A stretch of 64,000 bases of DNA from sequence record KM190144; one strand, given 5' to 3'. This document shows positions 276-22,276 of the stretch, piece by piece (the stretch's first letter is position 1; each line of letters opens with the position of its first letter). The position numbers were made by a program, and so were the translations under genes. The notes under the pieces are model-generated. The model saw only the letters and a list, made by a program, of their open reading frames with translations. It made no database searches and had not been told where the DNA came from. The stretch is from Escherichia phage Av-05.

Positions 276-278
276 TGG

Positions 279-306: not shown

Positions 307-380
307 TTACTATTTATAATTAAGACATATTGTGGTAAAATAACCACATCTTATAATAATTTACAAGAGGAGGCATAATC

Positions 381-1875: not shown

Positions 1876-1885
1876 GGATGTTATT

Positions 1886-2563: not shown

Positions 2564-2575
2564 AGGAGACCACAT

Positions 2576-4639: not shown

Positions 4640-4654
4640 GAAGGAGATACTTTT

Positions 4655-5725: not shown

Positions 5726-5728
5726 GGG

Positions 5729-6280: not shown

Positions 6281-6291
6281 GGAGACAAGGA

Positions 6292-7076: not shown

Positions 7077-7091
7077 GGATTCTAATGTATT

Positions 7092-7355
7092 ATGCTAAAA
7101 TCAATATTGAAATTTTTAAAAGACCTTGTCAGATCCCCAGTAAATCCAGAGAAGGCCTCTCACACAAAATTTTGGAGTAATATCGGCTTGGCTGCAATGA
7201 CAGCAGTTTTTTTAGATTGGGGTTTCAAAGGCACATTGACGGAGTGGTATATGTGGGTGTATGCCCCCACAGTGGCTGCTCCACAGTTAATAAGTAAGTT
7301 AATATCTCTACGTTGGGGTGTAGAAGCACAACGTAGGGAAGAATCAGACCAATAA
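7092..7355 (+). CDS. small membrane protein (holin-like?)
   Basis: 87 aa, central hydrophobic segment, charged C-terminus. Confidence 0.3.
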   Translation: MLKSILKFLKDLVRSPVNPEKASHTKFWSNIGLAAMTAVFLDWGFKGTLTEWYMWVYAPTVAAPQLISKLISLRWGVEAQRREESDQ

Positions 7356-7365
7356 GGAGATTCTT

Positions 7366-9120
7366 GTGGCAGACATGACTAAATTTGAACAGGCGGTCGA
7401 TCAGGTTGTAGAAGATTCTGAACGCCTTCATAAAGTTGTCAATGGGGCAGCTACTGAAACTGTAGTTACAGAGGATGGCAGTCTGATACCTACAGTCAGA
7501 AAAGCATTTCTTGACAATTTATTCTTTAAAACACCTCCACTACCGTGGGTTGCTGGACAACAGGCAACGGTATTTAATCAGTTGTATGCTTATACAGGGG
7601 AAAGAGGTGTCCAATGGTGGTATGCACCCGGTGCGACAGAGAGTTCACCTGTAACACTACCTTCTAATCCAGTCAACAATGTTAACTGGAGATTATACAA
7701 CGATTCAGAATCTATGTCTCAGCTATTTGCGCCTATTGACAGCCCTATCTTTACAGGGAACCCTCAAGCACCAACACCATCAGCGGATAGTAACAGTACA
7801 ACTCTGGCAACAACACAATTCGTTACCAGAGCTATTGCTACCGCTTTGGCTGGAATTGCGGGTGGAAATGGTACATTCGCAGATCTTACTGTAACAGGTT
7901 TAGCTAGTCTTAATACGCTTTCTGTTGGCGGTGTATCAACATTTAATGGGCCTGTTAATGCTGACAACCAAACAGGAAAATTCCAGAATCTTATCTTAAC
8001 AAAAGATAATTCAAGCCTATCTTTTGCCTACAGTGATGATTCTAACCCGACGTTTATAAAAACAAGGCTTGAAGCATACTCAGCACAGACCCATCAGTTA
8101 CATACAGATATCATCATAAACGGTGTGCCAGTAGCAGACAATACAACAATGTCTTTCACAGGTCTTGGTAATAATACCTTCGACTATGTTTATATTACAG
8201 GCAACTCTAAAAAAGACCCATCTGAAGCTCGTCTCAAAGTTTCTGGGATGACAGAACTTGAAAACTTAAAGATCACAGGTACTGTAACAGGACTTTCTTT
8301 TTCTGTCAATGGGGAAGACATCTCGCCTAATTCTGTAACAACGGCACAAGGGGTTACTGTAGGTGGTGATTTACAAGTCAATGGTAACACCAATCTCAAC
8401 AGTACAACATGTGAGAGCTTAGAAGTTACTAACAACCTTGTTGTTAATGGACAAACCAGCCTCAAGGATTTCTCCTCTACAACTGGTAATGTCACAGGGC
8501 TATTAACTTTAGGGGAGGGATTCACTGCGACTGGTGACGGGTCTGTAGGTGGTGATCTAACTGTCAACGGAACTTCAACCCTTGGTAAGATAATATCTGA
8601 TGGTGATGTGACTTTAAATAGATCTTCTGGCACAACAACAGTAAACAATTTGGTTGTTAAGGGGACTGTATCTGGTATTACGTTTGATTTGACAGGACAA
8701 AACGTAAACGTAGCATCTCTTTCTGCTCAAAGCAGTGTAACGACAAATCAGTTATTTGTTAACGGCCAGGCACAACTTTCTTCCACCAATGTAAGTTTCC
8801 TAACTTTACAATCGGAAGAGGTTGACGATCCAACAGCAACATGGACACCAAGCGGCACATCCAACATTTATAATATCACAGTGAATAAAAATCTGACAAT
8901 CGGAGCATGGCCTGATCCACAGCAACCTTTCTCCGCTATGATTTATCTGACGCAGGATGCCACAGGTGGACACAGTGTAACTCTGGATCCTAATTATGTT
9001 GTCCTTAACAGTGAAACTGTTAATACGGCAGCAAATTCAGTTACCATCCTTCAATTAACCTTTAATGGTGTTGAAGATGGGGTTGTTGACACCATTATTG
9101 TCCGTAGACCACAACCATAA
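7366..9120 (+). CDS. tail fibre protein
   Basis: 584 aa; ...PIFTGNPQAPTPSADSNSTTLATTQFV... fibre motif; long Thr/Gly/Asn/Val repeat region. Confidence 0.55.
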   Translation: MADMTKFEQAVDQVVEDSERLHKVVNGAATETVVTEDGSLIPTVRKAFLDNLFFKTPPLPWVAGQQATVFNQLYAYTGERGVQWWYAPGATESSPVTLPSNPVNNVNWRLYNDSESMSQLFAPIDSPIFTGNPQAPTPSADSNSTTLATTQFVTRAIATALAGIAGGNGTFADLTVTGLASLNTLSVGGVSTFNGPVNADNQTGKFQNLILTKDNSSLSFAYSDDSNPTFIKTRLEAYSAQTHQLHTDIIINGVPVADNTTMSFTGLGNNTFDYVYITGNSKKDPSEARLKVSGMTELENLKITGTVTGLSFSVNGEDISPNSVTTAQGVTVGGDLQVNGNTNLNSTTCESLEVTNNLVVNGQTSLKDFSSTTGNVTGLLTLGEGFTATGDGSVGGDLTVNGTSTLGKIISDGDVTLNRSSGTTTVNNLVVKGTVSGITFDLTGQNVNVASLSAQSSVTTNQLFVNGQAQLSSTNVSFLTLQSEEVDDPTATWTPSGTSNIYNITVNKNLTIGAWPDPQQPFSAMIYLTQDATGGHSVTLDPNYVVLNSETVNTAANSVTILQLTFNGVEDGVVDTIIVRRPQP

Positions 9121-9126
9121 TATAAA

Positions 9127-9151
9127 AGGCCACAGCAGTGGCCTTTGTTTT
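9127..9151 (+). terminator. rho-independent terminator
   Basis: hairpin AGGCCACagcaGTGGCCT then TTGTTTT. Confidence 0.5.
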
Positions 9152-9161
9152 AGGAGGATTA

Positions 9162-11105
9162 ATGTATCCAATCCCTTGTTTTTATATCATAATTTCCAAT
9201 AACCCTCTAGCCAACTCCATTTCCTTAACCTCCCTCGGTACGTGTCTTAAAGGAGGCAAAGCACAATTAATATGGTCTGTTGTGCCAGAAGGTGCAGACT
9301 TGCATGATATAACATTTACACCAGACAAACCGACAATTGTATCTGTTGATCCTACGGGGCTAGTATCTTTTCTTGAAGATGGTGATTTTATCATCACAAT
9401 GTCTGCAAAGACTGGCAAAGGAGATGAAGAAAAGACCTTAACAGCACAAATCAATGGGCATGTTGACACATTACGCATTGATGTTGATCCTATAGGCAGC
9501 AGAAGCATTAGTGATAGATTCTGGTTTGTCTACAAAGGCGACCCGTCTTTTGACCCAGGCAATCCGAATCCGAATATGATTGGCTTTAACATCTCCCCAG
9601 CAGAAGTTATGGAGGAGGATGACTTTTATGTCACCGCAGTTTCTGAAACACCTGATATATTAAGTCTGGCTCCTAGTGGTATCATTACATGTGTTAGTAA
9701 AGGTGTTGGGCATTGTGGCATGAAAGGAACCTATAAAGATGTGACAGTAACGACGCTTACCGATGTATATGTGGATATAGCACCAGCACTTATAAATCCG
9801 ACTGCTGTAGCCAACAGTTATGGTGACGTTAAGATAGCGTGGGATGTTCAATTTCCCTCCTCGGATGATATTTATACCGTAGAGGTTTATGACCCTAAAA
9901 TGCCAGATGCTGTGTGGAGTAAGAAAACCAAAGACACATTCGTATTCTTTGATGTTACAGAATCAGTGCCTATCTTTGGATTCGCCCCTACATATCTTGA
10001 TGTGGTCATCAAAGGATCAAATCCAGAAACACAACCTATAAGTCCTGATAGGAATATAACTGTTGACGACTCTTTTGTTAAAGAGGTGCTTGTTTTTGCT
10101 GGCGGTGATAACGCAGCAGCGCATTTTAACTCTTTTTCTGGTAGGGATAAAACAACCCAAAGTGCGACCACAGCACGTAATGAGTATGCTCTCAGCAAAG
10201 GGTTTTACCCAGCAGAAGTATTACCAATCAATGCCGCATTCATTACATCTTGTGCAGAAGCACAGGCAAACTCCTCTACAGGGTTAGCCACAAATTACTG
10301 GTATGACGTTAGTTCCTCCACAGCAGGTCCGTGTCTAACACAGTTCCTTGCGAAGGTTAAACCTTATAAGGATAAAATTAAGGCTGTTTTCTGGTCGTTA
10401 GGGGAACAAGATGCCATGGTAGCAGCAGCAAAACAAGAGGGAAAACATAGCGATGATGCTCGTTTTCAGACTGCTATGACCGCCATCTTTGAAAATATCC
10501 GATCTGTTATCACAAATCCTGAAGCCAAGATTGTATTGCAGACACTTGGCAGATGCTTTGATGATGATGTGGAAGTAGGTGGTGTTGAGTGGTATCGTTA
10601 TAGAAATATTCAACAACAGTTAGTGGTAGATTCCAAGGGTGGAGTTATAATTGGCTCTTGGGTTGATGGCGCTGAACACTACGGCAATTATGTTGTTTCA
10701 GGGGCAGGGGGTGGTTTAAGAATACACTACCGACCAACAATTTATAAGAATGCCGCAATATCCTTGGCTAACATGGAGGACTTGTCGAGCACACCTCCTG
10801 CTTGGGTGGATATGAAAGTTCCCATGGGAGGAAAGGCAGTAAGGCAAGCAAACCAAGATATTCTTTTATCATGGGATACCAGAGACTACAGCAAGTTCTC
10901 TCTTTTTAACTTTGATGTCCTGACAGGGGCTGTTATATCCCAACAAACATTGACCACCAATAGTTACACATTTACCTACGCAGATCAAGTAAAACAGTAC
11001 GGGTATGCTGCGGGTACAGTTTTGTTTGGTGTTGCATATGTTCAAACAACCAGTAAAGGTGATATTACATCTCCGTTGGCGAAATTCAATATTAATGTAG
11101 CGTGA
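9162..11105 (+). CDS. tail fibre/tailspike protein
   Basis: ATG at 9162 with TAGGAGGA SD (track start 9138 is a GTG inside the terminator hairpin); large beta-rich protein. Confidence 0.45.
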   Translation: MYPIPCFYIIISNNPLANSISLTSLGTCLKGGKAQLIWSVVPEGADLHDITFTPDKPTIVSVDPTGLVSFLEDGDFIITMSAKTGKGDEEKTLTAQINGHVDTLRIDVDPIGSRSISDRFWFVYKGDPSFDPGNPNPNMIGFNISPAEVMEEDDFYVTAVSETPDILSLAPSGIITCVSKGVGHCGMKGTYKDVTVTTLTDVYVDIAPALINPTAVANSYGDVKIAWDVQFPSSDDIYTVEVYDPKMPDAVWSKKTKDTFVFFDVTESVPIFGFAPTYLDVVIKGSNPETQPISPDRNITVDDSFVKEVLVFAGGDNAAAHFNSFSGRDKTTQSATTARNEYALSKGFYPAEVLPINAAFITSCAEAQANSSTGLATNYWYDVSSSTAGPCLTQFLAKVKPYKDKIKAVFWSLGEQDAMVAAAKQEGKHSDDARFQTAMTAIFENIRSVITNPEAKIVLQTLGRCFDDDVEVGGVEWYRYRNIQQQLVVDSKGGVIIGSWVDGAEHYGNYVVSGAGGGLRIHYRPTIYKNAAISLANMEDLSSTPPAWVDMKVPMGGKAVRQANQDILLSWDTRDYSKFSLFNFDVLTGAVISQQTLTTNSYTFTYADQVKQYGYAAGTVLFGVAYVQTTSKGDITSPLAKFNINVA

Positions 11106-11110
11106 TAGCA

Positions 11111-11141
11111 AAATAAAAGGGAGCTAAAAGCTCCCTTTTAT
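11111..11141. terminator. bidirectional terminator between convergent late (+) and early (-) blocks
   Basis: hairpin AAGGGAGCtaaaAGCTCCCTT flanked by A-run and T-run. Confidence 0.55.
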
Positions 11142-11158
11142 ATTAACAAATGCTACTT

Positions 11159-12331
11159 TTAGAAAGGAATATCTTCATCGTAGTCAAACTCAGGTGCTGG
11201 CGACTCCATATTCGGAATATCGCTGTTAGCACTGTTCAAAGGTTCCTTAGCATCCTGTTTGTTCTCTTGTTGTGTCTTCCCATCACCTTTAGATAAGAAC
11301 TCGTAAAAAGGCTCTGACAGCGTTAGGTAAACATCTTTAGCGGCATTAAGAATGCCATCTTCTGTTAGTTTATCGATTTGATGATACAAAGCACAAGCTA
11401 CTAAGATAGCATTACCCGCACTAGCACCCACCGCATTAGATTCCACATCTTTTCCTGTTCTCTCTGCCACAAAAGCCTTCATAGCTACTGTAGCGTTGTG
11501 AACCATCTTCGCGGCAGAGAGACGATCCTCGATCTTAAAACCAGCTTTAATGAGTTCCTTCACACCGTTGATGCCGTGCCCACAAGCAACACCTAAAGCA
11601 TCATAGCCGCCAGATGACTTCTTAGTCTGCCCAGCAGGACCGTAGGCTTTAAATCCACTTAAGACCGTACCATCACTTAGGTTAACAATCGCAGTGACAC
11701 GACCACCTACTGCAACTTGCGACAATTGCTCATCTGTGAGGACAAGGTTTCCTTGACCATTCTTCTCATCATTAACTGTCACCACATTGCCAACGATTGC
11801 AGCAATCTCACCATAAATTTTAGTGCCTTTAACTTGGGCATTTGCAGGTGATTGGGTCGAAGATTGCTGGCGAGGAGCACTTTGACCAACTTTGCTTTCA
11901 TCAAGAATGCTGAAGGTCTTTCCGTTTAAAGTGCCGTTTGTATACGTTTTATCCACACTCTTAGTAATTTTGAGAGGGAAAGAAACAACCATCCCCGCCA
12001 CAATATCTTTGTATCCAGAATCAAATTTCACCTGAATTTTGTCTGCATGGCTTGGGTGAAGTTTTTTCTCACCCATAGAAATCCACTCACCTTGGCTCTG
12101 TGGGTCAATAACGTTGTTATTATCGTCAACCTCTTGCATCAGGAAACTGATTGAGTGCGTGGCCTCAATAACTTTAGCTGGTTGCCCATTGCGAGCAGGG
12201 ATATGGGTACGCCGGATACCATCTGCGTCAGCGTTTTTCACTGGACGAATATTAACATACTTGATAAAACCTTTCGCAAAATAATCAACTTTTCCGTTGA
12301 TTGGGTTTTTAAATTCATTGATTACGCTCAT
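11159..12331 (-). CDS. DNA-binding protein with SSB-type acidic C-terminal tail
   Basis: C-terminus ...EFDYDEDIPF matches the E. coli SSB tip (DDDIPF); start taken at internal ATG with AAGGAGAG SD. Confidence 0.4.
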   Translation of the reverse strand: MSVINEFKNPINGKVDYFAKGFIKYVNIRPVKNADADGIRRTHIPARNGQPAKVIEATHSISFLMQEVDDNNNVIDPQSQGEWISMGEKKLHPSHADKIQVKFDSGYKDIVAGMVVSFPLKITKSVDKTYTNGTLNGKTFSILDESKVGQSAPRQQSSTQSPANAQVKGTKIYGEIAAIVGNVVTVNDEKNGQGNLVLTDEQLSQVAVGGRVTAIVNLSDGTVLSGFKAYGPAGQTKKSSGGYDALGVACGHGINGVKELIKAGFKIEDRLSAAKMVHNATVAMKAFVAERTGKDVESNAVGASAGNAILVACALYHQIDKLTEDGILNAAKDVYLTLSEPFYEFLSKGDGKTQQENKQDAKEPLNSANSDIPNMESPAPEFDYDEDIPF

Positions 12332-12344
12332 TCTCTCTCCTTTA

Positions 12345-12686
12345 TTACTTAACGCCTTCAGCAGTTTCGTTTCCAACGCTCAACATCTTATCTACCACTA
12401 AATCTTCAACTTGATTTAGCAGGTTCAATGCAAAAGTGGAAGCAGTATTTAATTTCAACAAATTGTTGCGGTGTCCTCGGATCCATGAAATTGCATCCTC
12501 TACCGTTTTATAGTTACCACTTTGGATGAGCTTTAGCATCTCTTCTCGAATTTCTTTCGACCCGATTACTGTTCCCATCTGGTGGCTGGCGCTGGACAAG
12601 TATACAATTGTTCCAAACTGCCCTTCATCAAGATCAAGAAAACGGATATCTTCTTTGCTTTCAGGTGTTTGTTTTTCTTCAGACAT
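12345..12686 (-). CDS. hypothetical protein
   Basis: 113-codon ORF in co-directional array. Confidence 0.35.
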   Translation of the reverse strand: MSEEKQTPESKEDIRFLDLDEGQFGTIVYLSSASHQMGTVIGSKEIREEMLKLIQSGNYKTVEDAISWIRGHRNNLLKLNTASTFALNLLNQVEDLVVDKMLSVGNETAEGVK

Positions 12687-12941
12687 GTCTATTCCTTACA
12701 AGGTTGGTGAGTATTACATCTTACACTATGCGTGTATGTATGTCAAGATGATTTTTTGTCTTTTTCTTGGAGAAAAGACAGGACAAATGCTGTAACCGCT
12801 ATAATCAAAGGTGGCATGACAACAATTGCCCATGGTAGGTATAGAGGGGCAAGAACTAACCACCAAGACCAGTCTATAATCTCACACAACTTCAACGCTA
12901 TGAAGAGAATGCTTAACGCAGATAAAAATCTCATAGAGACC

Positions 12942-13223
12942 TCAAGAGAAAAACTCTTCTATAACTTCCCAAACCCTTTCCGAATCCCCTCCTGAAAGGA
13001 TACTCCAAATAACCATATCTTGATAGCCTTTCTTACACACATCCACTTGTCGAAATGCTTTATGGAAACCCTCTGGACAACTATATTCCACAGGGAGCAT
13101 ATCCACATTATCTTCGAAATATTTAAGTAGCAATTCCTCTTCTAAAGAGGGATTGTTGCGAAGTTTCTCTTTGAGATTCTCAACAAGTTGTGCACCTGTT
13201 AACTTTTTGTTTGTCATGTCCAA
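12942..13223 (-). CDS. hypothetical protein
   Basis: 93-codon ORF. Confidence 0.3.
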   Translation of the reverse strand: MDMTNKKLTGAQLVENLKEKLRNNPSLEEELLLKYFEDNVDMLPVEYSCPEGFHKAFRQVDVCKKGYQDMVIWSILSGGDSERVWEVIEEFFS

Positions 13224-13570
13224 TCTCCATTTTTAATTTCTAGTACATCCACGCTCTCTGTTGGTACAAAACCAACAACAGGCTTCATACATTTCTCTTT
13301 TACATTGTCGAAAACATACATTTCATCCAATGCTTTTTGTGTTGTGCACGATTCCCAGTTTTTTGTGTACTCTTTGTAGCCATCCTCGTAAAGGAGAAAG
13401 TAGTTAATAGTTGTTGCCCCAAGAATAACGAACATAACAAAAGAGACAACAACGTGTTTCCATGTTCCTTTGTACGATAAAATGAAAGCCCAAATAGAAC
13501 ACAACACATAAAACGATAAAGCAGGGAACCAGTTATTATGCACCTGGACCCACTCTAAAAAAGACATCAT
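13214..13570 (-). CDS. membrane protein
   Basis: 118 aa with hydrophobic helices. Confidence 0.3.
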   Translation of the reverse strand: MMSFLEWVQVHNNWFPALSFYVLCSIWAFILSYKGTWKHVVVSFVMFVILGATTINYFLLYEDGYKEYTKNWESCTTQKALDEMYVFDNVKEKCMKPVVGFVPTESVDVLEIKNGDWT

Positions 13571-13574
13571 GTTT

Positions 13575-13868
13575 CTATCCTTTATTCATATATCTCTTCC
13601 AGTCAGAAACAATGTTAGATGCAAGCTGATAAGTTCCGTTGGCATGCCCATCAGCTTTTGCAGCCGCTTTTACATATGGTAGGGCTTGTTCGAGAGCATC
13701 CACAATCAAGGGACACATTGCAATAGCCAAAGCTAGGTTCCCGTTTTCAGCGGTACAGATTGGGGAGTAGCTCTCTATTCCGTTTCCGTATTTCTCAAGA
13801 CTACCTTTAACAATAACTTGGTTTTCACCGAACAAATCCTCGTGATGTTCCCACATTTCTTTGGTCAT
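13575..13868 (-). CDS. hypothetical protein
   Basis: 97-codon ORF. Confidence 0.3.
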   Translation of the reverse strand: MTKEMWEHHEDLFGENQVIVKGSLEKYGNGIESYSPICTAENGNLALAIAMCPLIVDALEQALPYVKAAAKADGHANGTYQLASNIVSDWKRYMNKG

Positions 13869-14090
13869 CTAGTTGTTCCTCAATTTTGCCATTGCATTAT
13901 TAAATATTTTTTCGAGTTTCCTGTATTTAATCTTTTGTTTTATGCTTAACTTTTTTCTCTCTCCGGCAACCATTGCGCCATAATACTTAAATAAAACAAC
14001 ACGTCTATTGCTTACTTTTAATACTTGGGATTCCCTTTTCCTTGGCAGGAGAAGGATTTTAGCTTTGCGATTTTTCAACTTTACCTCCAA
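13869..14090 (-). CDS. small basic protein
   Basis: 73 aa, Lys/Arg-rich. Confidence 0.3.
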   Translation of the reverse strand: MEVKLKNRKAKILLLPRKRESQVLKVSNRRVVLFKYYGAMVAGERKKLSIKQKIKYRKLEKIFNNAMAKLRNN

Positions 14091-14601
14091 TCATCTTATC
14101 CAGTTTTCGCCACATATCCCACACACCACCATTACCTATTGTGTTTTTCGATGGAGTCACACAGGCGATAAATTCCAGATCAGTGCCCTTATTCATAAGA
14201 TATTCAGATACCAACCCTGAAGCGATCAGTTTTATATTTTCAAGGTCTTCTTCAAGCTCCTGAATACGAGCCTGTGCTTTTTCAATTTCTTCCTTATGTC
14301 TTTTGTATTCTTGAAAAGCGTGCCAAGATTGTCCTTTATGAACACTTTCACAAATGGCCTCTACTTGCTCTTTTGAGAGCACAGTGAGTGGTTGAGATGG
14401 GAAAATCATTATTTGTCCACTATCCCAATCGAATCCTGCATGTATAGATTGAACATCAACCGAAGGTGTTGCTCCAACAGTGCCTGGGGAATGAATAACG
14501 ATTGTTACTTTAGTGTCTGGATCCAGATATTGTTTTCCACGTAGAGATGCTATGTGATTAACCAAGTCTGTAAATTTTGAAAATTTCATGTAAAACCTCA
14601 A
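14059..14601 (-). CDS. hypothetical protein
   Basis: 180-codon ORF with C-terminal coiled-coil-like segment. Confidence 0.35.
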   Translation of the reverse strand: MRFYMKFSKFTDLVNHIASLRGKQYLDPDTKVTIVIHSPGTVGATPSVDVQSIHAGFDWDSGQIMIFPSQPLTVLSKEQVEAICESVHKGQSWHAFQEYKRHKEEIEKAQARIQELEEDLENIKLIASGLVSEYLMNKGTDLEFIACVTPSKNTIGNGGVWDMWRKLDKMIGGKVEKSQS

Positions 14602-15008
14602 TATGCAAAATAAACTGTTGCCACGCCGTTATAGTGGTCAAACGATACGGCGTTTACTTCATAGCTGGCCGGGAGCTTCGAGCCGAGAACGTATCTGGGC
14701 CACGTATTCCATGGAGTTTCTATACCCTTACCATTTTTATATACGACACATCCAAGCGAACCTACAACCTCCCCAGAACGTTTGCCACATGTTACGAAAC
14801 CTATATTTTTGTTGCTGTCATTAATAACTATTTGGTCATACCTGACTGATGCATTAGCAGCACGCTGTGCCAGTTGAGTTGCGATATTCGTAGAGTTCGC
14901 AGCAGCCACAGTAGCCATGGTCGCGGCGGTAGATGCCATAATAGCCGTTGAAGCCTGCACCTGTTGGGTAATTGTCAGCAATGCCGCTGCAAAAATGATC
15001 TTCTTCAC
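14598..15008 (-). CDS. secreted protein
   Basis: N-terminal signal peptide MKKIIFAAALLTITQQVQA. Confidence 0.35.
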   Translation of the reverse strand: MKKIIFAAALLTITQQVQASTAIMASTAATMATVAAANSTNIATQLAQRAANASVRYDQIVINDSNKNIGFVTCGKRSGEVVGSLGCVVYKNGKGIETPWNTWPRYVLGSKLPASYEVNAVSFDHYNGVATVYFAY

Positions 15009-15073
15009 TTGTTATCTCCTTGATGAAGCTGGGCAACTAACCTATCACAGATATGCCAAATATTTGTTAATGT

Positions 15074-15328
15074 TCATGCGGCATCGCTATGGTAGATAAA
15101 GTCTTCTTTGAACTGTTTGTATGTTAAGCAGTGCTCTAAATAACCCTCGTTAATTTTAATCAAAGGGAAGTCAGTAATCAAGACATGATTTAAACCAACG
15201 GCAGTAACAAGGTATTTCTGCTCTGGATCCCAAGACAATTTAGACTTGTACAAACAACCTTGTCTAATTTTAAAATCTTCCATATACCCACCCTTCGCAG
15301 TTGTGATCACGACATCCTTCAAAATCAT
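15074..15328 (-). CDS. hypothetical protein
   Basis: 84-codon ORF. Confidence 0.25.
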   Translation of the reverse strand: MILKDVVITTAKGGYMEDFKIRQGCLYKSKLSWDPEQKYLVTAVGLNHVLITDFPLIKINEGYLEHCLTYKQFKEDFIYHSDAA

Positions 15329-16043
15329 AAGGATTGTACTGCCAGGTTATTTTTCCGCAGTGCGGACAATTCCAGCGCACCTTCCCGCTTCGCGACTTCT
15401 TTCTTCTGTTCTGCTTTTTCAACCAGTCAGGCATGACCAAACCTGCGCCCTGAACCATTGTTCTGCGGTTAAAGTTATTGATATTGAACGTCAGGCGCTT
15501 TGCTGAATCAGCAATGGAAAATGGCAACCAAACTATTCCTGGTTCGTTTTTGTTGGCGACGCTAAAGATGGTCGCTTTACTGAAGTCATCTGTTGGCAAT
15601 CCACCGTGTTGAAGCCAGTAAACATCGTTGCCGTTCCAGCTACCTTTTTTGTAGGCCACATACGCAGTGCAATCTGGCTCAATCAGGTTTTCTGTAGGGA
15701 TGTACTGGCAATCAACGTGCCACACAGCCATTGCATCAACGCTATCAGCGCAAACAGGCCGATCGATATCTCGACCACAATTCCAGGCTTTTTGGGCTTC
15801 TTCCAGCGTGTAAACATGGGCGCGATCGATATCAGAACTGTAACCATTACCGTTATGGCAATGGAATGAGGCGTTATTACCTACAGTTTCACGCAAGCAC
15901 ATCATGTAAAAACGATTTTTACACATCTTTAGCAACCACCTGTAGACAAGTGAGTAAACCCATGATAAAAGCACCAATATGCCCAGCAAAAAGCAGCCCT
16001 TTATGAACAGGTAGCCCCGCCATAACCAACGCCACAGGAACAC
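15270..16043 (-). CDS. Cys-rich zinc-ribbon protein (start uncertain)
   Basis: C-terminal CPHCG...CRDHNCEGW; GC-richer codon usage than surrounding genes. Confidence 0.35.
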   Translation of the reverse strand: MFLWRWLWRGYLFIKGCFLLGILVLLSWVYSLVYRWLLKMCKNRFYMMCLRETVGNNASFHCHNGNGYSSDIDRAHVYTLEEAQKAWNCGRDIDRPVCADSVDAMAVWHVDCQYIPTENLIEPDCTAYVAYKKGSWNGNDVYWLQHGGLPTDDFSKATIFSVANKNEPGIVWLPFSIADSAKRLTFNINNFNRRTMVQGAGLVMPDWLKKQNRRKKSRSGKVRWNCPHCGKITWQYNPYDFEGCRDHNCEGWVYGRF

Positions 16044-16257
16044 TTACAAGTGTGAACAGGAATGCCCATAATAATTCTTTCATTATTTTCTCTTATGTTT
16101 TGACTTTCTACGTATCTTAGCTGCTCGTCGTGCCGCTGCAATACCTGTACGGCGTTTCGAGGTTGTGATGCCGTTGCCACCCTTCTCTGGCTCTAGAGTG
16201 CCTGTGGCATCCAAAAACGGATCGGATATGGTAATAAACTACATAATGCCACACGCA

Positions 16258-16716
16258 TTACTCACCTCCTTTGCGAAGCTCTGCGGCGAAATATACGGCT
16301 GCGGAAACAATAGCTGCATGTAGGTTTTCACCATCAGAAAATAAAGGATCCCCCTTAAGTGCATTGACGATACTCTGATGATTTTTTGCCAACATCTCCA
16401 CCCCCTGCGCCCGTACTTCAGCCAAGAAAGCATCTGTTGCCGGAGTTTCAGGAATCAGTCTCCTCATCAGTCCTATTGCATGATTGAACCCGAAATCTTC
16501 AGCAAGAGATACGTCATCCATATTGTCATTGTCGTCCTCAATATCCCGTGGTTCTGGAATTGCAGACTTTATTGCCGCATTCTCCGCAGCCAGCGCCGCA
16601 AGATTAGCTTCCAGTTCTGAGATTTTCTTTTTGTCATGGTATTTCTCTTCTAAAAGAGTTGCACATTTAGCACCAAGGCGTTTGATTTCATCAATGTACA
16701 CCGATTTCTCAGTCAT
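16258..16716 (-). CDS. hypothetical protein
   Basis: 152-codon ORF in GC-richer island. Confidence 0.35.
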   Translation of the reverse strand: MTEKSVYIDEIKRLGAKCATLLEEKYHDKKKISELEANLAALAAENAAIKSAIPEPRDIEDDNDNMDDVSLAEDFGFNHAIGLMRRLIPETPATDAFLAEVRAQGVEMLAKNHQSIVNALKGDPLFSDGENLHAAIVSAAVYFAAELRKGGE

Positions 16717-17056
16717 GGCTAATTACCTCTCCCTTCAACAACTTGACATTAATTTTGAGTTCTGCAATTTGACACATAGCGTCAATATTTGTGTCTTCTA
16801 ACTTCTTAATTTCATCAAGAAGTGCCAGCACAAGCTGGGGCGTGACCATAGCACGGTAGTCAGTTATTTCTTGATGAGTACCACCATCTTTTGCTATCTC
16901 TGCTAACTTACGTAATTCTTGGTAGTCAATTTTCATAACTTGATAAGTCCTGTGTTGTTTTATTGACTGCATTATATGCCTCTTTGAGCACCCAGTCAAC
17001 AGCATCTTTCCATGCTCCGGTTTCGACGGGTGGATTCTCACGCTTAACCTGCTCAT
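16709..17056 (-). CDS. hypothetical protein (start uncertain)
   Basis: ORF overlaps the upstream ORF in another frame. Confidence 0.3.
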   Translation of the reverse strand: MSRLSVRIHPSKPEHGKMLLTGCSKRHIMQSIKQHRTYQVMKIDYQELRKLAEIAKDGGTHQEITDYRAMVTPQLVLALLDEIKKLEDTNIDAMCQIAELKINVKLLKGEVISHD

Positions 17057-17312
17057 AGAAGCGCACTGCTTTAATCAATCCTTCTAAGGTTACAGGTGTG
17101 GTGTATAACGCCTGAATTTCGTAGTTTGGTCTGTCGTTACAATCTTCTTTTGTTGGGACATATTTCCAGTCACCAGTCCACAGATTTCCCTGTTTTACAT
17201 AACGATAGCGCCAAGCAACTGGTTGTTGGGTTGCTGTTTTAAGGCTTGGTGACGAAGGTGGGAGCGAAACATTAGCCATTTCCGAGATGACAGGTTGATA
17301 ACCATTGCTCAT
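16926..17312 (-). CDS. hypothetical protein
   Basis: 128-codon ORF, GC-richer. Confidence 0.3.
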   Translation of the reverse strand: MSNGYQPVISEMANVSLPPSSPSLKTATQQPVAWRYRYVKQGNLWTGDWKYVPTKEDCNDRPNYEIQALYTTPVTLEGLIKAVRFYEQVKRENPPVETGAWKDAVDWVLKEAYNAVNKTTQDLSSYEN

Positions 17313-17487
17313 CTAAATCTCCTCCTGCCTCATATGCCACTTGTAACCAATACATAAATGTTTCAATAGAAACACAACCACAATCCACATCAATCTGGTC
17401 ATGTTGTTGTTCCAACCACTGCTGAAAACGTGATTTTTGAGTGTCATTCTCTGGCTGTTCTTTTATCATTATCACCCCCATCGGCAA
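17272..17487 (-). CDS. hypothetical protein
   Basis: 71-codon ORF. Confidence 0.25.
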   Translation of the reverse strand: MPMGVIMIKEQPENDTQKSRFQQWLEQQHDQIDVDCGCVSIETFMYWLQVAYEAGGDLDEQWLSTCHLGNG

Positions 17488-17551
17488 ACTGAGTACACTG
17501 CAAAGGCTACAGCCATTACAACCCCTACCGTTGTGAATGCTTCAGGCCAAG

Positions 17552-18214
17552 TCATTGATTCATCCCCTTCTTCTTGAGCATGGCGGCACGGCAAGCGTTC
17601 CAGCCATCAACATAATCAAACGTATTACTATCGTCTGGCTCGATTTCATCCGGTACTGCCAATGTCGGCTGGGCGGCAACATTGGCAAAGGCTGCACGCA
17701 ACCCTGTCTTAATTTCCTCTACCTCATCAGCGCCTAGCGATGAATCTGACAGTGCATGATGGAATGCGTATGCCATGTCGTCGTTTACTGTTATCGGTTC
17801 CACTTTCTGTACTGTAAGTGTTGGCGGCACATGATACAACGGGATTACACGACGCGGGTCTGTGCCTTTACCTGGTGGGTACGGCATTATCCAGCCTAAA
17901 CCAATCTGATCAACATCCCGCAACTCCTCTTCGTCCGTCCATCCCACCGGTTCTGCTCTCAACTCCACCTGTGCATTAGGGGAGGTGTAGAGCGGGATTC
18001 CTTTCCTCCCACCAGAAAATTCATTGCGAGCGTTATACTCACGACCATCTGCGTCCTCACACATCCATGCTACAGGCTTTGTCTCCAGCACTGCCAAAGC
18101 AATCCGTGCCAGTTCTTGCGCTTCTTCTGCTGGCAGTACAACGTTGCTACCAAGTCCGTATGTTTCACGCCACTGCTTGATTGTCAGAAGGCGTTCTTTG
18201 GTAAGAATACTCAT
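17552..18214 (-). CDS. hypothetical protein
   Basis: 220-codon ORF, about 50 percent GC. Confidence 0.35.
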   Translation of the reverse strand: MSILTKERLLTIKQWRETYGLGSNVVLPAEEAQELARIALAVLETKPVAWMCEDADGREYNARNEFSGGRKGIPLYTSPNAQVELRAEPVGWTDEEELRDVDQIGLGWIMPYPPGKGTDPRRVIPLYHVPPTLTVQKVEPITVNDDMAYAFHHALSDSSLGADEVEEIKTGLRAAFANVAAQPTLAVPDEIEPDDSNTFDYVDGWNACRAAMLKKKGMNQ

Positions 18215-18216
18215 AT

Positions 18217-18480
18217 CTATTTCACCTTAATCTCAACATTTCTCACATCTAGCTCTACGGGGAGTTCTGCCTTTCCAGTCAGTGCTAATGCAAGATTTTC
18301 TGGAGTAATAATGACAGTTATTGTTTTTCCTCTCTCCAGACGAATAGCCATTCTTATCTTGTCATCATCATCACCTGTGTTAGGTCGAGTAATTGATATT
18401 TGTCCGTTCATATATTTATCCTCTGTTATTAACATGCCAATCCTTAACAAATGGTTATGTGAATGAAAGAAAGCAGCCAA
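18217..18480 (-). CDS. hypothetical protein
   Basis: 87-codon ORF. Confidence 0.3.
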   Translation of the reverse strand: MAAFFHSHNHLLRIGMLITEDKYMNGQISITRPNTGDDDDKIRMAIRLERGKTITVIITPENLALALTGKAELPVELDVRNVEIKVK

Positions 18481-18587
18481 AGAATTGACTCAATAGCTGC
18501 CCAACCAATAACTGCACAAACAACACCAAGAAACAAGAAAAAACCAGGACCTGGCAAATTATTGAACATCCTCACTCCCCTTTGTTA

Positions 18588-18893
18588 TTAGCACGCTGTA
18601 AAAGCAAGTGGTGAAGTGTACACTTCAATTTTTCCGTTATCAATAGGCCATTCTCCATCTTTGATATAGTCGCTTGTACCATCGACTCGCTGCTCTGCGA
18701 TATGGAAAGCACCAATCGGTTTTGCTTCTAATGCATTTAATGCGATCTTGGCAATCTCCAAATCAAGAGATACCATATCAAAAATCTTCTTATACTCATC
18801 CCCAGCCTCACCAACACGCTGTTGGAGGTCTTTCAGATGGTCAACATTAGAGCGCACATGCTTAAGTAGCTTCTCTTTTGTAAATCTTTTCAT
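18588..18893 (-). CDS. hypothetical protein
   Basis: 101-codon ORF. Confidence 0.3.
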   Translation of the reverse strand: MKRFTKEKLLKHVRSNVDHLKDLQQRVGEAGDEYKKIFDMVSLDLEIAKIALNALEAKPIGAFHIAEQRVDGTSDYIKDGEWPIDNGKIEVYTSPLAFTAC

Positions 18894-18901
18894 AAGTCAC
18901 C

Positions 18902-19165
18902 TTATCCTGCTGTACTTGCCACTACCGAGGGAAATGTAATACTCTCTTCAAACAAAGCGCCAAGGTTTTCAACAGCCATGCAAAAATCAAATGCCGTCCC
19001 AGAGTCCAGTGCCTTAAAAATTTCATCTTCACGGCGTAAATCGTACAGATAAATATGCCTATCCCCTATGGTATAAAAACCTATCCTTTTTGGGGATGGG
19101 TAACGATCAATGATGCTTTGAAGGTCTCTTAACCACTTCTTTTCTTCTTTTGTCAGTTTTGGCAT
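18902..19165 (-). CDS. hypothetical protein
   Basis: 87-codon ORF. Confidence 0.3.
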   Translation of the reverse strand: MPKLTKEEKKWLRDLQSIIDRYPSPKRIGFYTIGDRHIYLYDLRREDEIFKALDSGTAFDFCMAVENLGALFEESITFPSVVASTAG

Positions 19166-19167
19166 AG

Positions 19168-19659
19168 TTACTCTTCCCTTTTGAATAATACATCCCGTAA
19201 TACAGGAACGCTTTTATCCATACTTGCTTCAAGTTGCTTACTGTCCGCACTTGCCCATGCATACACAACCATTTTAGCAACGTCGCTCAAAGTTTCATAC
19301 TTATTTCTTAAAGCTCCTTGCTCCTTCTTGAAAAAATCTATATTGTCTTGTACCCATTGCAAGCGTTCTTTGTTCTCATGGCAAGTATTTTTAAACATTT
19401 CTCTACTATAGGGACTTGTCTGGTTAAAAGGCAATCTTTTATCTAGCCCCGCCTTTTCGAAATCATCATGCAGCATGTCTAGTAGGTCATCTCTGTAGCC
19501 GGACAAATGATTCACATTACACCAATCATATAAATTAGCACACAAACCGCAGTCACGAGAGAAAATATCAGAGTCTGGTGCTCCTCTTTTTACCCAAGCA
19601 TCGTAAGAAAGGTAAAAACTTTGTAATAAGACATGTAGCTTTGTAATATCAAAATTCAT
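19168..19659 (-). CDS. hypothetical protein
   Basis: 163-codon ORF. Confidence 0.3.
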   Translation of the reverse strand: MNFDITKLHVLLQSFYLSYDAWVKRGAPDSDIFSRDCGLCANLYDWCNVNHLSGYRDDLLDMLHDDFEKAGLDKRLPFNQTSPYSREMFKNTCHENKERLQWVQDNIDFFKKEQGALRNKYETLSDVAKMVVYAWASADSKQLEASMDKSVPVLRDVLFKREE

Positions 19660-20117
19660 TGCTCGAAATCTCCATTGCGAAGTTGCTCTGCATAAAGAAG
19701 GGCTTGTTTTCCCGCATAGATGATGCTTTCTTCTTGCTCCTGCTCTCCGATACGGATTGTGAGCATACCGTACATATGAACACCTTGAGCCATCATCTCT
19801 GTGGAGAACTTCTTTGTGGCTTCCAAACTGGGCATCAAAGGTGACTGATCTGCTGGGGTATATGCATCAGAGATATCAGATTGTTCCCCATCAAAAACAT
19901 AACAACTCTCACGAATGAACTTCTTTAGGAGTGCATTTTCTGATGCTACGTCAATGAACATACCCTCCAGTTTCTTGTAGTCATCGTAAGAAACCATGTC
20001 TGTACAGAAGGAACTCCCTTGTACAGGGGGTGATAAATAGTCACTTGGTATTGCATGTATCTTTACATTTCTCATAGAAATTCTCCACAAAGTGTCAGGT
20101 AGTGAAATGATACACAA
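19656..20117 (-). CDS. hypothetical protein
   Basis: 153-codon ORF. Confidence 0.3.
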   Translation of the reverse strand: MCIISLPDTLWRISMRNVKIHAIPSDYLSPPVQGSSFCTDMVSYDDYKKLEGMFIDVASENALLKKFIRESCYVFDGEQSDISDAYTPADQSPLMPSLEATKKFSTEMMAQGVHMYGMLTIRIGEQEQEESIIYAGKQALLYAEQLRNGDFEQ

Positions 20118-20141: not shown

Positions 20142-20513
20142 TTAATTAGCCAATTCAGCATCCAACGACATTATATACTCAGGTAGCTTTCGAATGTTCT
20201 CATACAGCACAATCTCTCCGTGTGTCAATGGCCTGATTTCTTTATCCACACCAACATTATTATGGTAATCCCAATCTGCATCGACATGGACGAAGACCAG
20301 CGTTCCTCTATTGCCAGTCTTAGCGGCCTTTCTTACGATAATCTCTCCGTCTATTGAAGGTAGGCATCTTTTAAAGAACTTGTTTAAAAGTTTTTGTTGA
20401 ATTGCTTCTGCCAAGATCATTTTGTCTTGGCTATCTATGATTCTTTTAATTTCAGAGTTGTTTACTTCAACATCAATAAGTTGTGTTGTTGTCTGGGTTC
20501 CTTTTACTTTCAT
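20142..20513 (-). CDS. hypothetical protein
   Basis: start taken at internal ATG with TAAGG SD just after the HNH stop; longer track ORF overlaps the HNH gene. Confidence 0.3.
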   Translation of the reverse strand: MKVKGTQTTTQLIDVEVNNSEIKRIIDSQDKMILAEAIQQKLLNKFFKRCLPSIDGEIIVRKAAKTGNRGTLVFVHVDADWDYHNNVGVDKEIRPLTHGEIVLYENIRKLPEYIMSLDAELAN

Positions 20514-20523
20514 TATTTTTACC

Positions 20524-21162
20524 TTACTCTGATATAGGGTCTGTTTTTGATCTTCTTTTCTGGACTTTCTTGGGTCTTCCTGTGATATGTGACCATGAGT
20601 ATCCATTATTTAAAGAAGATATTGTATTTCTGGAAACTCCGAATAGTTCCGCAATAGCTTTGTGTGTTATCCCACAATCAATAAGCCGTACAATCTCTAA
20701 AACTTTCTCCTTTGTAAGGACAGATAAATGATAATCATCACCAAATTTTTGGATTCTCCCCATACTATAAGCCACTGTATTGTTATGGCTATAGGTACAC
20801 CACTCAAGATTTTCAACTCTATTATTATGTCTGTTACCATCTATGTGGTTTATAATTGGAACTCCTAGCACAGTTTTTCTGCATTCTTTCTGCAATTCTG
20901 GAGAAGGAGGCTCTTTAAAAGCCTCCGCTACAAGTCTATGGACTGAAAAACTTTTCCCTGAATCTTTACCCCTTTTGTACAAGCACACGCTCGGATAGCA
21001 TTGTGGAGATAAATTTTCACTTTTAGTTTTTAAATATTTCCACATTCCTGATTTAAAAGATCTTACATTTCCATAATTACTTACTTGATAATCAGGATAC
21101 CCTACAATATCCTTCCAAATTTCCTCTACTTCATCAGTGGGAATCTGCCCATGTGTATCCAC
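20524..21162 (-). CDS. HNH homing endonuclease, free-standing
   Basis: YQVSNYGNVRS (NUMOD4-like) and INHIDGNRHNNRVENLEW... (HNH) motifs; overlaps 3' end of polymerase exon 3. Confidence 0.65.
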   Translation of the reverse strand: MDTHGQIPTDEVEEIWKDIVGYPDYQVSNYGNVRSFKSGMWKYLKTKSENLSPQCYPSVCLYKRGKDSGKSFSVHRLVAEAFKEPPSPELQKECRKTVLGVPIINHIDGNRHNNRVENLEWCTYSHNNTVAYSMGRIQKFGDDYHLSVLTKEKVLEIVRLIDCGITHKAIAELFGVSRNTISSLNNGYSWSHITGRPKKVQKRRSKTDPISE

Positions 21163-21433
21163 AAAGATATTCTCCTGTAATTAAAACGGGAAGCCCCATT
21201 ATCTTAGACGCTTTTTCTACACATTTTGTTGCAAGCTCTCCTACTGGGCAATGCAGTATCCTGTATTTCCCATACACATCAGGTTCAACAATAACTTTAC
21301 CTGCTTTCACATAATGTCCGTCGAAACGATGGCCTTTTTCAAGCATCATATCTACATAGCTTTGTGCAGCCTCTAAGTTAGAATGCTCCGTTATTGATTT
21401 AAATCTTTCCGGTACTTGTACCTGTATCTCATC
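21134..21433 (-). CDS. DNA polymerase, family A (T7 gp5-like), exon 3 of 3
   Basis: starts DEIQV (motif C HDE after splicing to ...YYH); C-terminus resembles T7 gp5 end. Confidence 0.6.
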   Translation of the reverse strand, partial: DEIQVQVPERFKSITEHSNLEAAQSYVDMMLEKGHRFDGHYVKAGKVIVEPDVYGKYRILHCPVGELATKCVEKASKIMGLPVLITGEYLCGYTWADSH

Positions 21434-22276
21434 CACTAGTTCAAGGAGTTCGCTACTCTCCCCCGCACCGTTACGTGCATAGCCACAAGATTTCTCCTGT
21501 GGGTCAGACTATATCATAACCCTTTTTCAAGGGTTCCTCCCGTTTGGACCGCGCTTGCTGGCCTACTCTACTCGCTTCTTCACATCAGATGAAGCTGATG
21601 CTATGCTTTCGATAGTCGTTGAACGTCACTTACCAAGTATAGTCTTTAGAGATATGCACCCACAATCTCCGTTGTTTAATTCCTTTTACGGATGGGTAGG
21701 GGTATCCGAGATCTCTAATCTCGCATTGCCTTAGCCCTGACTGTAGCAATTCACAAATCTCTCTCACATCTTTTTCTGTGAGAATGGCATTCGCATTGTT
21801 TTCACCAATAGGTATAACACGTAATCCTGTATCGTAAGCATGTTTTATATTGCTGCCATGTGTCCCCCACTCAAGATTCCACGCTGCGTTATTAAGTTTG
21901 TTTCCATCTTTATGATTAACGCTGGTGAATCTTTCTGGATCTGGATTAGGCACAAAACATTCTGCCACCATCCGATGTATGGCTTTCGTACAGGACTTAC
22001 CGTCTATCCTTATAATTGTACACAGATATCCCCTCCCATTATCAAATACCTGCAAGGGAAGTTTATCTCTTTTTGAAAGAGGCGTGGAACCATCTTCAAA
22101 AACTGTATACCCATGGTAATCTTTTGCTTTTACCATTTTACTATACCTCTTTAAGTTTTCGCTGCGGATTGGCATATTGTCCTTATAACACAATACATTA
22201 TAAGAATCAACTTAGCTTTCCCGACAATTAGAGAGGTTTTCGACATGCATTACTGCATGAAGCCACAATGTTATTT
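21434..22276 (-). mobile_element. group I intron 2 in DNA polymerase gene
   Basis: on sense strand: starts right after exon T, in-frame stop, P-like aattgtcgggaaa, Q-like caatccgcagcg, R-like cgttcaacgactatcg, S-like gatatagtctga, ends in G; boundaries within a few nt. Confidence 0.6.
21630..22136 (-). CDS. intron-encoded HNH homing endonuclease
   Basis: HKDGNKLNNAAWNLEWGTHGSN HNH motif; start at ATG preceded by AAGAGG. Confidence 0.6.
   Translation of the reverse strand: MVKAKDYHGYTVFEDGSTPLSKRDKLPLQVFDNGRGYLCTIIRIDGKSCTKAIHRMVAECFVPNPDPERFTSVNHKDGNKLNNAAWNLEWGTHGSNIKHAYDTGLRVIPIGENNANAILTEKDVREICELLQSGLRQCEIRDLGYPYPSVKGIKQRRLWVHISKDYTW

Follow-up and report, generated by a model that had tools for sequence, protein, structure and literature searches.

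Temperate-type genes in a variable accessory slot of an rV5-like Escherichia phage

Genes and composition of the slot

We analyzed a 64,000-nt stretch of DNA from Escherichia phage Av-05 (sequence record KM190144), hereafter called the window, and in it an island of small genes at 15270-18480 that is richer in guanine and cytosine (GC) than its surroundings. By its composition, the island stands out as the core of a larger accessory slot (~13575-20117), in which genes related to those of temperate phages are found. The slot is bracketed by two Vequintavirinae core genes (13214-13570 and 20142-20606), which have homologues in SSE121 (Seunavirus) and FFH2 (Vequintavirus). No homologue of any gene in 13575-20117 was found in the syntenic regions of these two phages. 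The syntenic slot of FFH2 is only ~1.2 kb long, and that of the Salmonella phage SSE121 (12538-16392 of locus L007) carries genes for a PnuC-like nicotinamide mononucleotide transporter and a nicotinamide-nucleotide adenylyltransferase, that is, for NAD salvage (PnuC/NadR). The slot is a general cargo site across the subfamily.

The backbone of the phage is well placed. The flanks 1-13251 and 19000-40000 were 93-97% identical at the nucleotide level to Escherichia phage vB_EcoM_TH18 (TH18 below) and to three partial records from the same source, all classed as Vequintavirinae by NCBI, and the identity to TH18 spans 89-94% of 35 kb. In addition, a few segments (baseplate and DNA-polymerase genes) aligned to Seunavirus and related phages at 72-77% nucleotide identity, and the core genes are syntenic with those of SSE121 and FFH2. 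Judged by backbone homology and synteny, the window is from a Vequintavirinae (rV5-like) myovirus. The rV5-like phages are virulent.

The features of the slot are listed below, with E-values against PHROG families. All of them lie on the minus strand, as do all genes from ~11.1 kb to 42 kb (GC skew). ORF denotes open reading frame; siblings are the close relatives described in the next section; dN and dS are the nonsynonymous and synonymous divergence.

13575..20117, minus strand: the whole variable accessory slot, ~6.5 kb, GC 42.6% compared with 39.4% in the backbone
13869..14090, minus strand: 73-aa ORF (phrog_1380, E = 1e-21), related to a small temperate-phage protein, 52-53% amino acid identity to loci L006 and L002
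14059..14601, minus strand: ~176-180-aa protein (phrog_6026 and part of the Ea22-like phrog_368)
14598..15008, minus strand: 136-aa protein (phrog_8805, 2e-76), GC 46.5%, 86% nucleotide identity to prophages and plasmids
15074..15283, minus strand: 69-aa ORF (phrog_20019, 1e-39, aligned from residue 16 of an 84-aa ORF)
15270..15926, minus strand: HkaG/Upf87.6-like protein, 218 aa (phrog_2457, E = 1e-115)
15919..16083, minus strand: 54-aa ORF with two hydrophobic segments, a putative small membrane protein; its stop overlaps the start of the HkaG-like gene (ATGTGTAA)
16083..16257, minus strand: decayed gene of a ~60-aa small basic protein, recognized by alignment to intact copies
16258..16716, minus strand: Ead/Ea22-like protein, 152 aa, coiled coil and C-terminal domain, ending ...LRKGGE (Pfam PF13935; phrog_368, 492 and 614)
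16709..16933, minus strand: 74-aa ORF (MKIDYQELRK...) for the N-terminal segment and coiled coil of Ea22; with the 152-aa ORF downstream of it, it makes up a split Ea22-like gene
16926..17312, minus strand: 128-aa protein (phrog_660, 1e-32) with a "PVAW...LYTTP" module; 90-96% amino acid identity among siblings, dN/dS 0.10-0.16
17272..17481, minus strand: ~69-aa ORF (N-terminal piece of phrog_924), 66-70% amino acid and 74% nucleotide identity to P7 and a P1-like plasmid
17552..18214, minus strand: 220-aa modular protein at the GC peak (50.7%), 87-90% nucleotide identity to temperate loci (17577-17800 and 18075-18204)
18217..18411, minus strand: 64-aa protein (phrog_1222, 7e-34)
18588..18893, minus strand: 101-aa protein, weakly paralogous to the 220-aa protein
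18902..20117, minus strand: three accessory genes matching PHROGs, of 87 aa (phrog_1714), 163 aa (phrog_2510) and 153 aa

The GC content of the island is 45.0%, compared with 39.7% for the whole window and 39.7% and 39.5% for its immediate flanks. Non-overlapping windows of the same length had a mean of 39.4% (standard deviation, sd, 1.3; maximum 42.5), which places the island at z ~4.3, the strongest compositional outlier among same-size stretches of the 64 kb. Thus, the GC-richer island noticed in an earlier, sequence-only reading was borne out, and the computed profile is not flat. However, the contrast of 45-50 with 35-40 percent given there holds only roughly and for the extremes. The rise is modest and patchy, and three genes account for most of it. 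For instance, the HkaG-like gene has ~46% GC, the 220-aa gene stands at the peak and the gap next to the Ead/Ea22-like gene has 44%, whereas several intervening genes have only 37-39%. Two other local rises, smaller than the island, were seen at 21300-21750 (46-48%) and 58001-59000 (44.5%).

Codon usage gave a similar picture. GC at third codon positions (GC3) was 0.43-0.48 in three genes and 0.33 +/- 0.04 in the backbone. Compared with 25 long backbone ORFs, the HkaG-like, 220-aa and 136-aa genes lay at least 2 sd away from the backbone toward E. coli codon usage, in a comparison that is approximate; the remaining island genes were backbone-like. The E. coli-like codons ascribed to the island as a whole are therefore found in three genes only, and one of these (14598-15008) lies outside it. 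Furthermore, foreign-type content extends beyond the island to 14278-15021, 18618-18728, 18902-19165 and 19656-20117.

Temperate relatives and turnover among siblings

A megablast search with 15000-19000 found 122 phage records, mostly of temperate phages (Shiga toxin (Stx)-converting phages, P1, P7, SJ46, IME10 and a Lederbergvirus). The sequence-only reading had proposed a comparison with E. coli prophages; the search gave matches in 1304 of 5426 complete E. coli genomes. The matches were on chromosomes and on ~90-100-kb plasmids, several of which are P1-like according to their annotation, and the genes under them were annotated as "ead/Ea22-like", "DUF551 domain-containing", "EaA", "hkaG" and "Upf87.6". 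In the slot, at least seven segments had 67-97% nucleotide identity to exo-xis/ea/hka-type regions of phages, prophages and plasmids. The closest was hkaG: 633 bp (15288-15920) were 95-97% identical to P7 upf87.6, IME10 hkaG, 611R6, P1-like plasmids and lambdoid or epsilon15-like prophages, with 95.9% for P7 upf87.6. Other segments were 83-91% identical to temperate DNA.

The temperate homologues occur in three contexts, namely an accessory region on the early left that is flanked by erf/recT/abc and xis/int, a site behind the replication genes of an epsilon15-like prophage, and an operon of P7 with a C1 operator in front. The GC content of these donor regions is 44.7-48.5% and matches that of the island, and the raised GC of the island can be put down to a donor composition of 45-48.5%. 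On nucleotide identity, these comparisons show that the slot genes entered the lineage from the temperate-phage pool of E. coli.

In addition, GC content varied with the degree of identity. The hkaG segment had 46.6% GC in the phage and 46.4% in its temperate homologues, a segment with 83% identity had 42.8% and 46.4%, and a segment with 74% identity had 39.0% and 53.3%, respectively. This is suggestive, on a few short segments, of amelioration, in which the more diverged modules would be older and would have drifted toward the 39% GC of the phage.

Nine sibling loci were compared, from TH18 and from contigs of ENA and Logan, one of them a scaffold of 137,934 bp. When ten hkaG alleles were placed in a tree, the window formed a clade with L009 and L013/L014, with 11 fixed differences from all temperate alleles, and the virulent alleles sat on long branches. 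Between siblings, dS of the island genes was ~0.03-0.34 (mostly 0.10-0.23) and overlapped that of a core gene (0.07-0.14), while dN/dS was 0.0-0.56 in the island genes and 0.10-0.17 in the core gene. Of the 15 hkaG changes specific to the window, 11 are at third codon positions. With hkaG in its own clade, dS like that of the core gene and these dN/dS values, the alignments show that the cassette was already present in the common ancestor of these ~95%-identical siblings, and that its genes have been held under purifying selection.

The TH18 allele has a different history. It lies at the same genomic position as the window copy, and it nests inside the temperate clade: over 633 bp it is 99.8% identical to P7 upf87.6. 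Furthermore, TH18 (2961-3647 of locus L001) and P7 (4288-4974 of locus L005) are 99.6% identical over 687 bp, a match that runs into the N-terminal codons of the downstream Ea22 gene. This is evidence, from allele identity, that a P7-like allele replaced the TH18 hkaG copy very recently through recombination.

The presence/absence matrix of the nine sibling loci revealed rapid gene turnover between phages that are ~95% identical. For example, L010 and L011 retain only a C-terminal remnant of hkaG, L013/L014 are the only siblings that share the 136-aa gene with the window, L010-L012 lack the block 18217-20117, and TH18 lacks 13252-15287 of the window. As judged from this matrix, remodelling of the slot is continual: genes are gained and lost or decay, and alleles are replaced. 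A gene for a Dam-like DNA methyltransferase (Pfam MethyltransfD12) was present in the variable slot of only L013 (6756-7646) and L015 (2481-3359), and the window does not carry it.

Proteins of the slot and the gap

The cassette proteins fall in recognized families whose functions are uncharacterized. They had been called unrecognized, which the present results contradict: Pfam Ead_Ea22 and PHROG families match, and the nucleotide identity to annotated temperate-phage genes is 83-97%. With the exception of the 54-aa ORF, all island ORFs have a match among PHROG families of unknown function.

In the HkaG-like protein, an alpha/beta domain at the N terminus is followed by a basic linker and, at the C terminus, by a C4 zinc ribbon. 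Its match to phrog_2457 covers positions 2-218 of 222; across 41 sequences, C187, C190 and C205 do not vary, and the conservation of C210 is at least 90%. The Cys-rich zinc-ribbon protein of the sequence-only reading is confirmed by these cysteines, with 15270-15926 as the true gene. By its full-length profile match and C-terminal CxxC...C...C pattern, the protein belongs to the HkaG/Upf87.6 family, which has 245 matches, is widespread in prophages and plasmids and lacks a Pfam model. It is 93-97% identical in amino acids to the proteins of P7, 611R6 and prophages. Among phage records, alleles more than 90% identical were found in temperate phages and the TH18 group only; homologues occur also in Klebsiella, Yersinia, Serratia and Vibrio phages, and 181 of the 290 E. 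coli matches to the gene were plasmid-borne. The AlphaFold2 model was highly confident, with a predicted local distance difference test score (pLDDT) of 93, and a fold search of BFVD gave no match. The protein is, on this model, a candidate for a novel fold or domain fused to a C4 zinc ribbon, and it is probably a nucleic-acid-binding protein. In the literature we found nothing on hkaG function. The annotation of the P7 homologue as a "putative tyrosine phosphatase" received no support from Pfam.

A longer gene model for hkaG, a 257-aa ORF with a GTG start, was also rejected; the part that it adds runs, in a different frame, across the conserved 54-aa ORF. No temperate hkaG allele is homologous beyond 15920, and an ATG stands in the window at 15926; thus, the 257-aa ORF is an over-extension, and it had hidden the 54-aa ORF. 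The 54-aa ORF is intact, gene-called and conserved in siblings L009, L013, L014 and L016 (87-100% amino acid identity, dN/dS 0-0.3), and had no PHROG, Pfam or NCBIfam match. At the other end of hkaG, the 69-aa ORF overlaps the gene end and is conserved in siblings (dN/dS 0-0.2).

The interval 16044-16257 had been described as a 210-bp non-coding gap. This description does not hold: the interval contains a frameshifted gene of a small basic protein, beside which stands the intact 54-aa ORF. The N-terminal part (MRVALCSLLPYPIRFW) and the C-terminal part (KRRTGIAAARRAAKIRRKSKHKRK) of this gene are in different frames, and an in-frame TAG, a 1-nt and a 6-nt deletion and a diverged center are seen, whereas the gene is intact in sibling L009 and in the temperate locus L006 (5003-5179). 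By alignment to these copies, the gap 16083-16257 is a decayed protein gene, neither an RNA nor a regulatory element. A functional non-coding RNA or regulatory element in 16044-16257 would fit the conserved flanks of the gap among the window, L009 and temperate loci, and a 43-aa ORF with a TTG start (16083-16214) that retains the basic C-terminal half is still open. However, conservation follows the pattern of a protein gene, with the N- and C-termini of the peptide conserved and the indels and the stop codon in the divergent center. The search of Rfam suggested for this interval matched no family there: in 14500-19500, even at E <= 1, nothing was found in the gap, and the only match lay elsewhere (17474-17534) at chance level (18.9 bits compared with a gathering score of 58.6). 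We therefore regard an RNA or regulatory element as very unlikely.

Next to the gap is the Ead/Ea22-like gene. Its 152-aa product reaches the Pfam Ead_Ea22 (PF13935) gathering score (30.0 bits against a cut-off of 27, E = 8.7e-7), while the product of 16709-17056, with 20 bits, remains below the cut-off. PHROG families 368, 492 and 614 are common to the products of 16258-16716, 16709-17056 and 19656-20117. The Ea22-like gene is split: the 74-aa piece matches positions 1-125 of phrog_368 and the following 152-aa ORF positions 76-237, and the split is conserved in TH18, L009, L010 and L013. The N-terminal motif of the 74-aa piece resembles the MTIDYQ alleles of temperate phages. In addition, the slot encodes a second protein with an Ead-like C-terminal domain, the 153-aa product of 19656-20117, which ends QLRNGD... 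and is paralogous to the 152-aa protein (E = 8e-6). A borderline match (E = 0.052) of residues 88-137 of the 152-aa protein to PDB chain 9def_A ("Win", 164 residues), unrelated to Ea22, was its only match in the PDB; no Ea22 chain was found there, and PDB sequence searches with the 152-aa, 220-aa and 128-aa proteins gave nothing significant.

The 220-aa protein is built of a DUF551/DUF550/Ea22-type N-terminal helix, two "PVAW/PVGW...PLY" repeats and a conserved C-terminal module. It had no Pfam match, and DUF551 (PF04448) was not detected in it. Meanwhile, 6740 relatives were found, which form a mosaic superfamily, and many of them carry PF04448 after the shared modules; in E. coli relatives, PF04448 is C-terminal to these modules, which stop where the window protein stops. 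The TH18 homologue is annotated as "EaA protein". A module consisting of a hydrophobic residue and PVAW, PVGW or PIGA, followed by ~25-35 residues and (L/V)Y(T/H)xP, occurs in the products of 16926-17312, 17552-18214 (twice) and 18588-18893; its copy number varies between relatives, and no Pfam model covers it.

Further parts of the slot also have temperate relatives. The segment 14278-15021 is 79-86% identical in nucleotides to E. coli prophages and P1-like plasmids, where it adjoins ead/Ea22-like genes, and the 136-aa protein encoded there has an N-terminal segment that looks by eye like a signal peptide. The segment 18071-18411 is 83% identical to an epsilon15-like prophage, in which the homologue of the 64-aa gene is likewise the upstream neighbour of a DUF551 gene. 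Furthermore, the central part of the 101-aa gene (18618-18728) and the N-terminal coding part of a temperate DUF551 gene share 85% identity, and the 87-aa gene (18902-19165) has 67.5% identity to a gene adjoining ead/Ea22-like genes in P1-like plasmids and prophages.

Beyond the slot lies an HNH homing-endonuclease gene (20524-21162, minus strand; NUMOD4, HNH_3 and helix-turn-helix domains), with a GC of 36% and a GC3 of 27%, the lowest in the area. It was in no sibling locus, and it adjoins split DNA-polymerase genes, as in relatives. The start of its product, VDTHGQI, repeats the start MDTHGHI of the downstream core gene 20142-20606, and the family homology of the latter product begins only at residue 32. 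The repeat suggests that the HNH insertion may have duplicated the 5' end of the core gene.

Exchange with temperate phages and possible functions

The module junctions coincide with gene boundaries that bear short conserved sequences. One of these is the Ea22 N-terminal sequence ATGA(C/A)AATTGACTA(T/C)CA(G/A), which encodes M(T/K)IDYQ. The other, CTTCGCAAAGGAGG, encodes the C-terminal LRKGG of Ead-like proteins together with the Shine-Dalgarno sequence of the next gene. The latter is present at the end of the window ead gene (16265-16278) and just upstream of the hkaG start in TH18 and, in variant forms, in three of the five temperate loci examined; the second Ead-like gene also ends in it, with two mismatches (19669-19682). 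Three matches were found and 0.33 expected. Exchange would take place when the phage infects cells that carry prophages or P1-like plasmids, and homologous recombination may then occur at the M(T/K)IDYQ and LRKGG/CTTCGCAAAGGAGG module boundaries. Homologous recombination at boundary sequences is the classical account of lambdoid mosaicism.

The slot can be compared with several known systems. The exo-xis region of lambda and Stx phages (Ea22, Ea8.5, orf60a, orf61, orf63 and orf73), the ea region of P22 and the hka region of HK620 share with it the Ead_Ea22 family, the MxIDYQ motif with a coiled coil, the N-terminal and middle modules of the DUF551 family and HkaG (PMC10834534). Tightly packed, overlapping small ORFs and mosaic module swapping are common to all, and nucleotide identity reaches 97%. 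However, the slot lies between Vequintavirinae core genes, not between exo/bet/erf and xis/int, by which those regions are defined, and its gene order is permuted. Unlike the exo-xis region, it has no DUF551 domain, Ea8.5 or orf73/TraR homologue detectable with Pfam. Lambda Ea22 is a single three-domain tetrameric polypeptide (PMC10834534), whereas the window has overlapping 74-aa and 152-aa ORFs. In addition, the P1/P7 operon (upf87.6 and upf88.3, with a C1 operator annotated in P7) shares the HkaG-like gene and the adjoining ead/Ea22-like and small ORFs, but what is shared with P7 is single modules and not the operon; the operator and the pap, shtA and shtB context of P7 are absent from the window.

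That genes pass between temperate phages and large virulent ones has been documented (Moura de Sousa et al. 2021, PMC8136500). The present case agrees with the pattern used in that study for recent transfer, a large virulent phage with genes nearly identical to those of unrelated temperate phages of the same host. It differs in that early-region accessory genes are concerned, and that at one locus the siblings reveal an acquisition that is old and selected as well as an allele replacement that is very recent. In the literature we found no paper about TH18, nor one about this cassette or other ea-type genes of Vequintavirinae.

What might these genes do in a virulent phage? Previous studies showed that exo-xis genes are among the earliest transcribed after infection (PMC10834534), that Ea22 affects developmental outcome (PMC10834534, PMC7093339) and that the yfdQRST cluster of prophage CPS-53 inhibits DnaA-dependent initiation (PMC4776307). 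In that cluster (yfdQ-yfdR-yfdS-yfdT), YfdS carries DUF551, the domain present in E. coli relatives of the 220-aa protein; the window protein itself lacks it, and no homologue of YfdR (an HD-domain protein) or YfdQ was detected in the slot. The C1 operator before the P7 homologues implies expression in lytic development. Furthermore, exo-xis genes can sway the lysogeny decision, but the phage of the window has none to make, and their retention under selection without such a decision suggests host-directed rather than lysogeny-specific targets. By analogy, we tentatively propose, as a possibility rather below even chances, that the proteins are dispensable, early-expressed modulators of the host, with replication initiation, cell-cycle or stress physiology, and competition with resident temperate elements as candidate targets. 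Unlikely on present evidence is a bolder proposal, in which the primary role of Ea22/HkaG-type genes in lytic infection would be to silence or exploit resident prophages and P1-like plasmids (e.g., holding them uninduced) or to block host replication initiation, with the boundary motifs as a dedicated recombination interface and the HkaG-like protein as a new type of nucleic-acid-binding effector. If this were true, the boundary motifs would keep the accessory gene pool of temperate phages open to virulent ones.

Regarding transcription, a sigma-70-like site (16999-16971, minus strand; TTGACT, a 17-nt spacer and TATAAT, 11/12) lies ~35 nt upstream of the Ea22 N-terminal ORF and is conserved in TH18 and L009. 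A scan of the window for promoters and terminators gave counts at chance level. A strong terminator-like hairpin (11141-11113, minus strand), with a 13-bp stem and a T run, was seen where the minus-strand block meets the plus-strand structural genes.

Taken together, we consider it likely that a ~6.5-kb variable slot of an rV5-like phage is filled with temperate-type genes, which are selected and still exchanged with temperate phages. The sequence-only reading had seen a recently acquired accessory cassette; that its genes are foreign and from the temperate-phage pool stands, given the 95-97% hkaG identity and the absence from SSE121 and FFH2, but one recent event does not. A block inserted from an E. 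coli prophage shortly before sampling would agree with this hkaG identity and with the donor-equal GC of the HkaG-like gene, which shows no amelioration, and very recent imports do occur, as TH18 demonstrates. However, transcription in every temperate locus examined runs from hkaG through ead and small genes to the DUF551 gene, whereas the window has hkaG last; identity to temperate alleles varies from 67 to 97% across the modules of the slot, and no temperate record covers more than 25% of 15000-19000. In addition, the window hkaG allele found no counterpart above 96.7% identity in 280 E. coli genomes, and both the virulent-lineage hkaG clade and the core-like sibling dS speak against so late an arrival. 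Thus, a single recent insertion is unlikely.

Transfer in the reverse direction, with genes native to the virulent lineage and later acquired by temperate phages and P1-like plasmids, would accord with the long branches of the virulent alleles and with the generally two-way gene flow between lifestyles (PMC8136500). It is highly improbable, since temperate elements carry these families very widely (matches in 1304 E. coli genomes; 6740 sequences related to the 220-aa protein) and the other Vequintavirinae examined (SSE121 and FFH2) lack them, the composition fits temperate regions and not the virulent backbone, and the TH18 allele is nested in temperate diversity. There is next to no chance that no transfer took place, with the GC rise arising from the amino acid composition of native genes or from an assembly chimera. 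Some island genes do have an elevated GC at first and second codon positions (GC1 and GC2; e.g., the 220-aa gene has a GC1 of 0.62), and several have backbone-like codon usage, but 83-97% nucleotide identity to temperate DNA excludes convergence, and at least nine independent assemblies, from the TH18 group and from ENA and Logan contigs, have the cassette at the same place in the genome.

Several points weigh against our interpretation of a selected, temperate-type cassette with a role in infection. The virulent lifestyle assumed here is taken from the taxonomy of relatives. The HkaG-like gene shows no GC-to-AT bias (7 compared with 6 changes), which leaves a few short segments as the basis for amelioration. 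Of ten cassette proteins, none matched the anti-phage defence profiles of PADLOC-DB and none had a useful NCBIfam match, and no protein of the cassette has an experimentally known biochemical function. A structure search found no fold relative of the HkaG-like model in the PDB, the similarity of its zinc ribbon to eL43 was below threshold (E = 0.06), and the structure model of the 220-aa protein (pLDDT 51) was too poor for use. The analogy with DnaA inhibition is indirect, as the window lacks a DUF551 domain and a YfdR homologue. Finally, the promoter-like site at 16999-16971 lies inside the 128-aa coding sequence, and sites with 11/12 matches are not enriched (5 observed compared with 3.0 +/- 1.6 expected).

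The case for a temperate-type cargo in the slot is clear, although it is a case of ordinary gene flow between phage lifestyles, and it is well resolved in evolutionary terms. It shows cleanly, and in a way that can be dated, how genes of temperate phages and phage-plasmids reached a large virulent coliphage, in which a single locus combines an old, selected acquisition, an allele replacement at 99.6-99.8% identity, gene decay and presence/absence turnover. For phage therapy genomics, it is a caution that "temperate-like" genes in a lytic phage need not mean a temperate lifestyle. Furthermore, this phage group offers a simple genetic background for probing the roles of Ea22-like and HkaG-like proteins. 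The genes of exo-xis/Ea type are usually discussed as modulators of the choice between lysis and lysogeny; here they are kept without lysogeny, which points to a lytic role directed at the host or at competitors.

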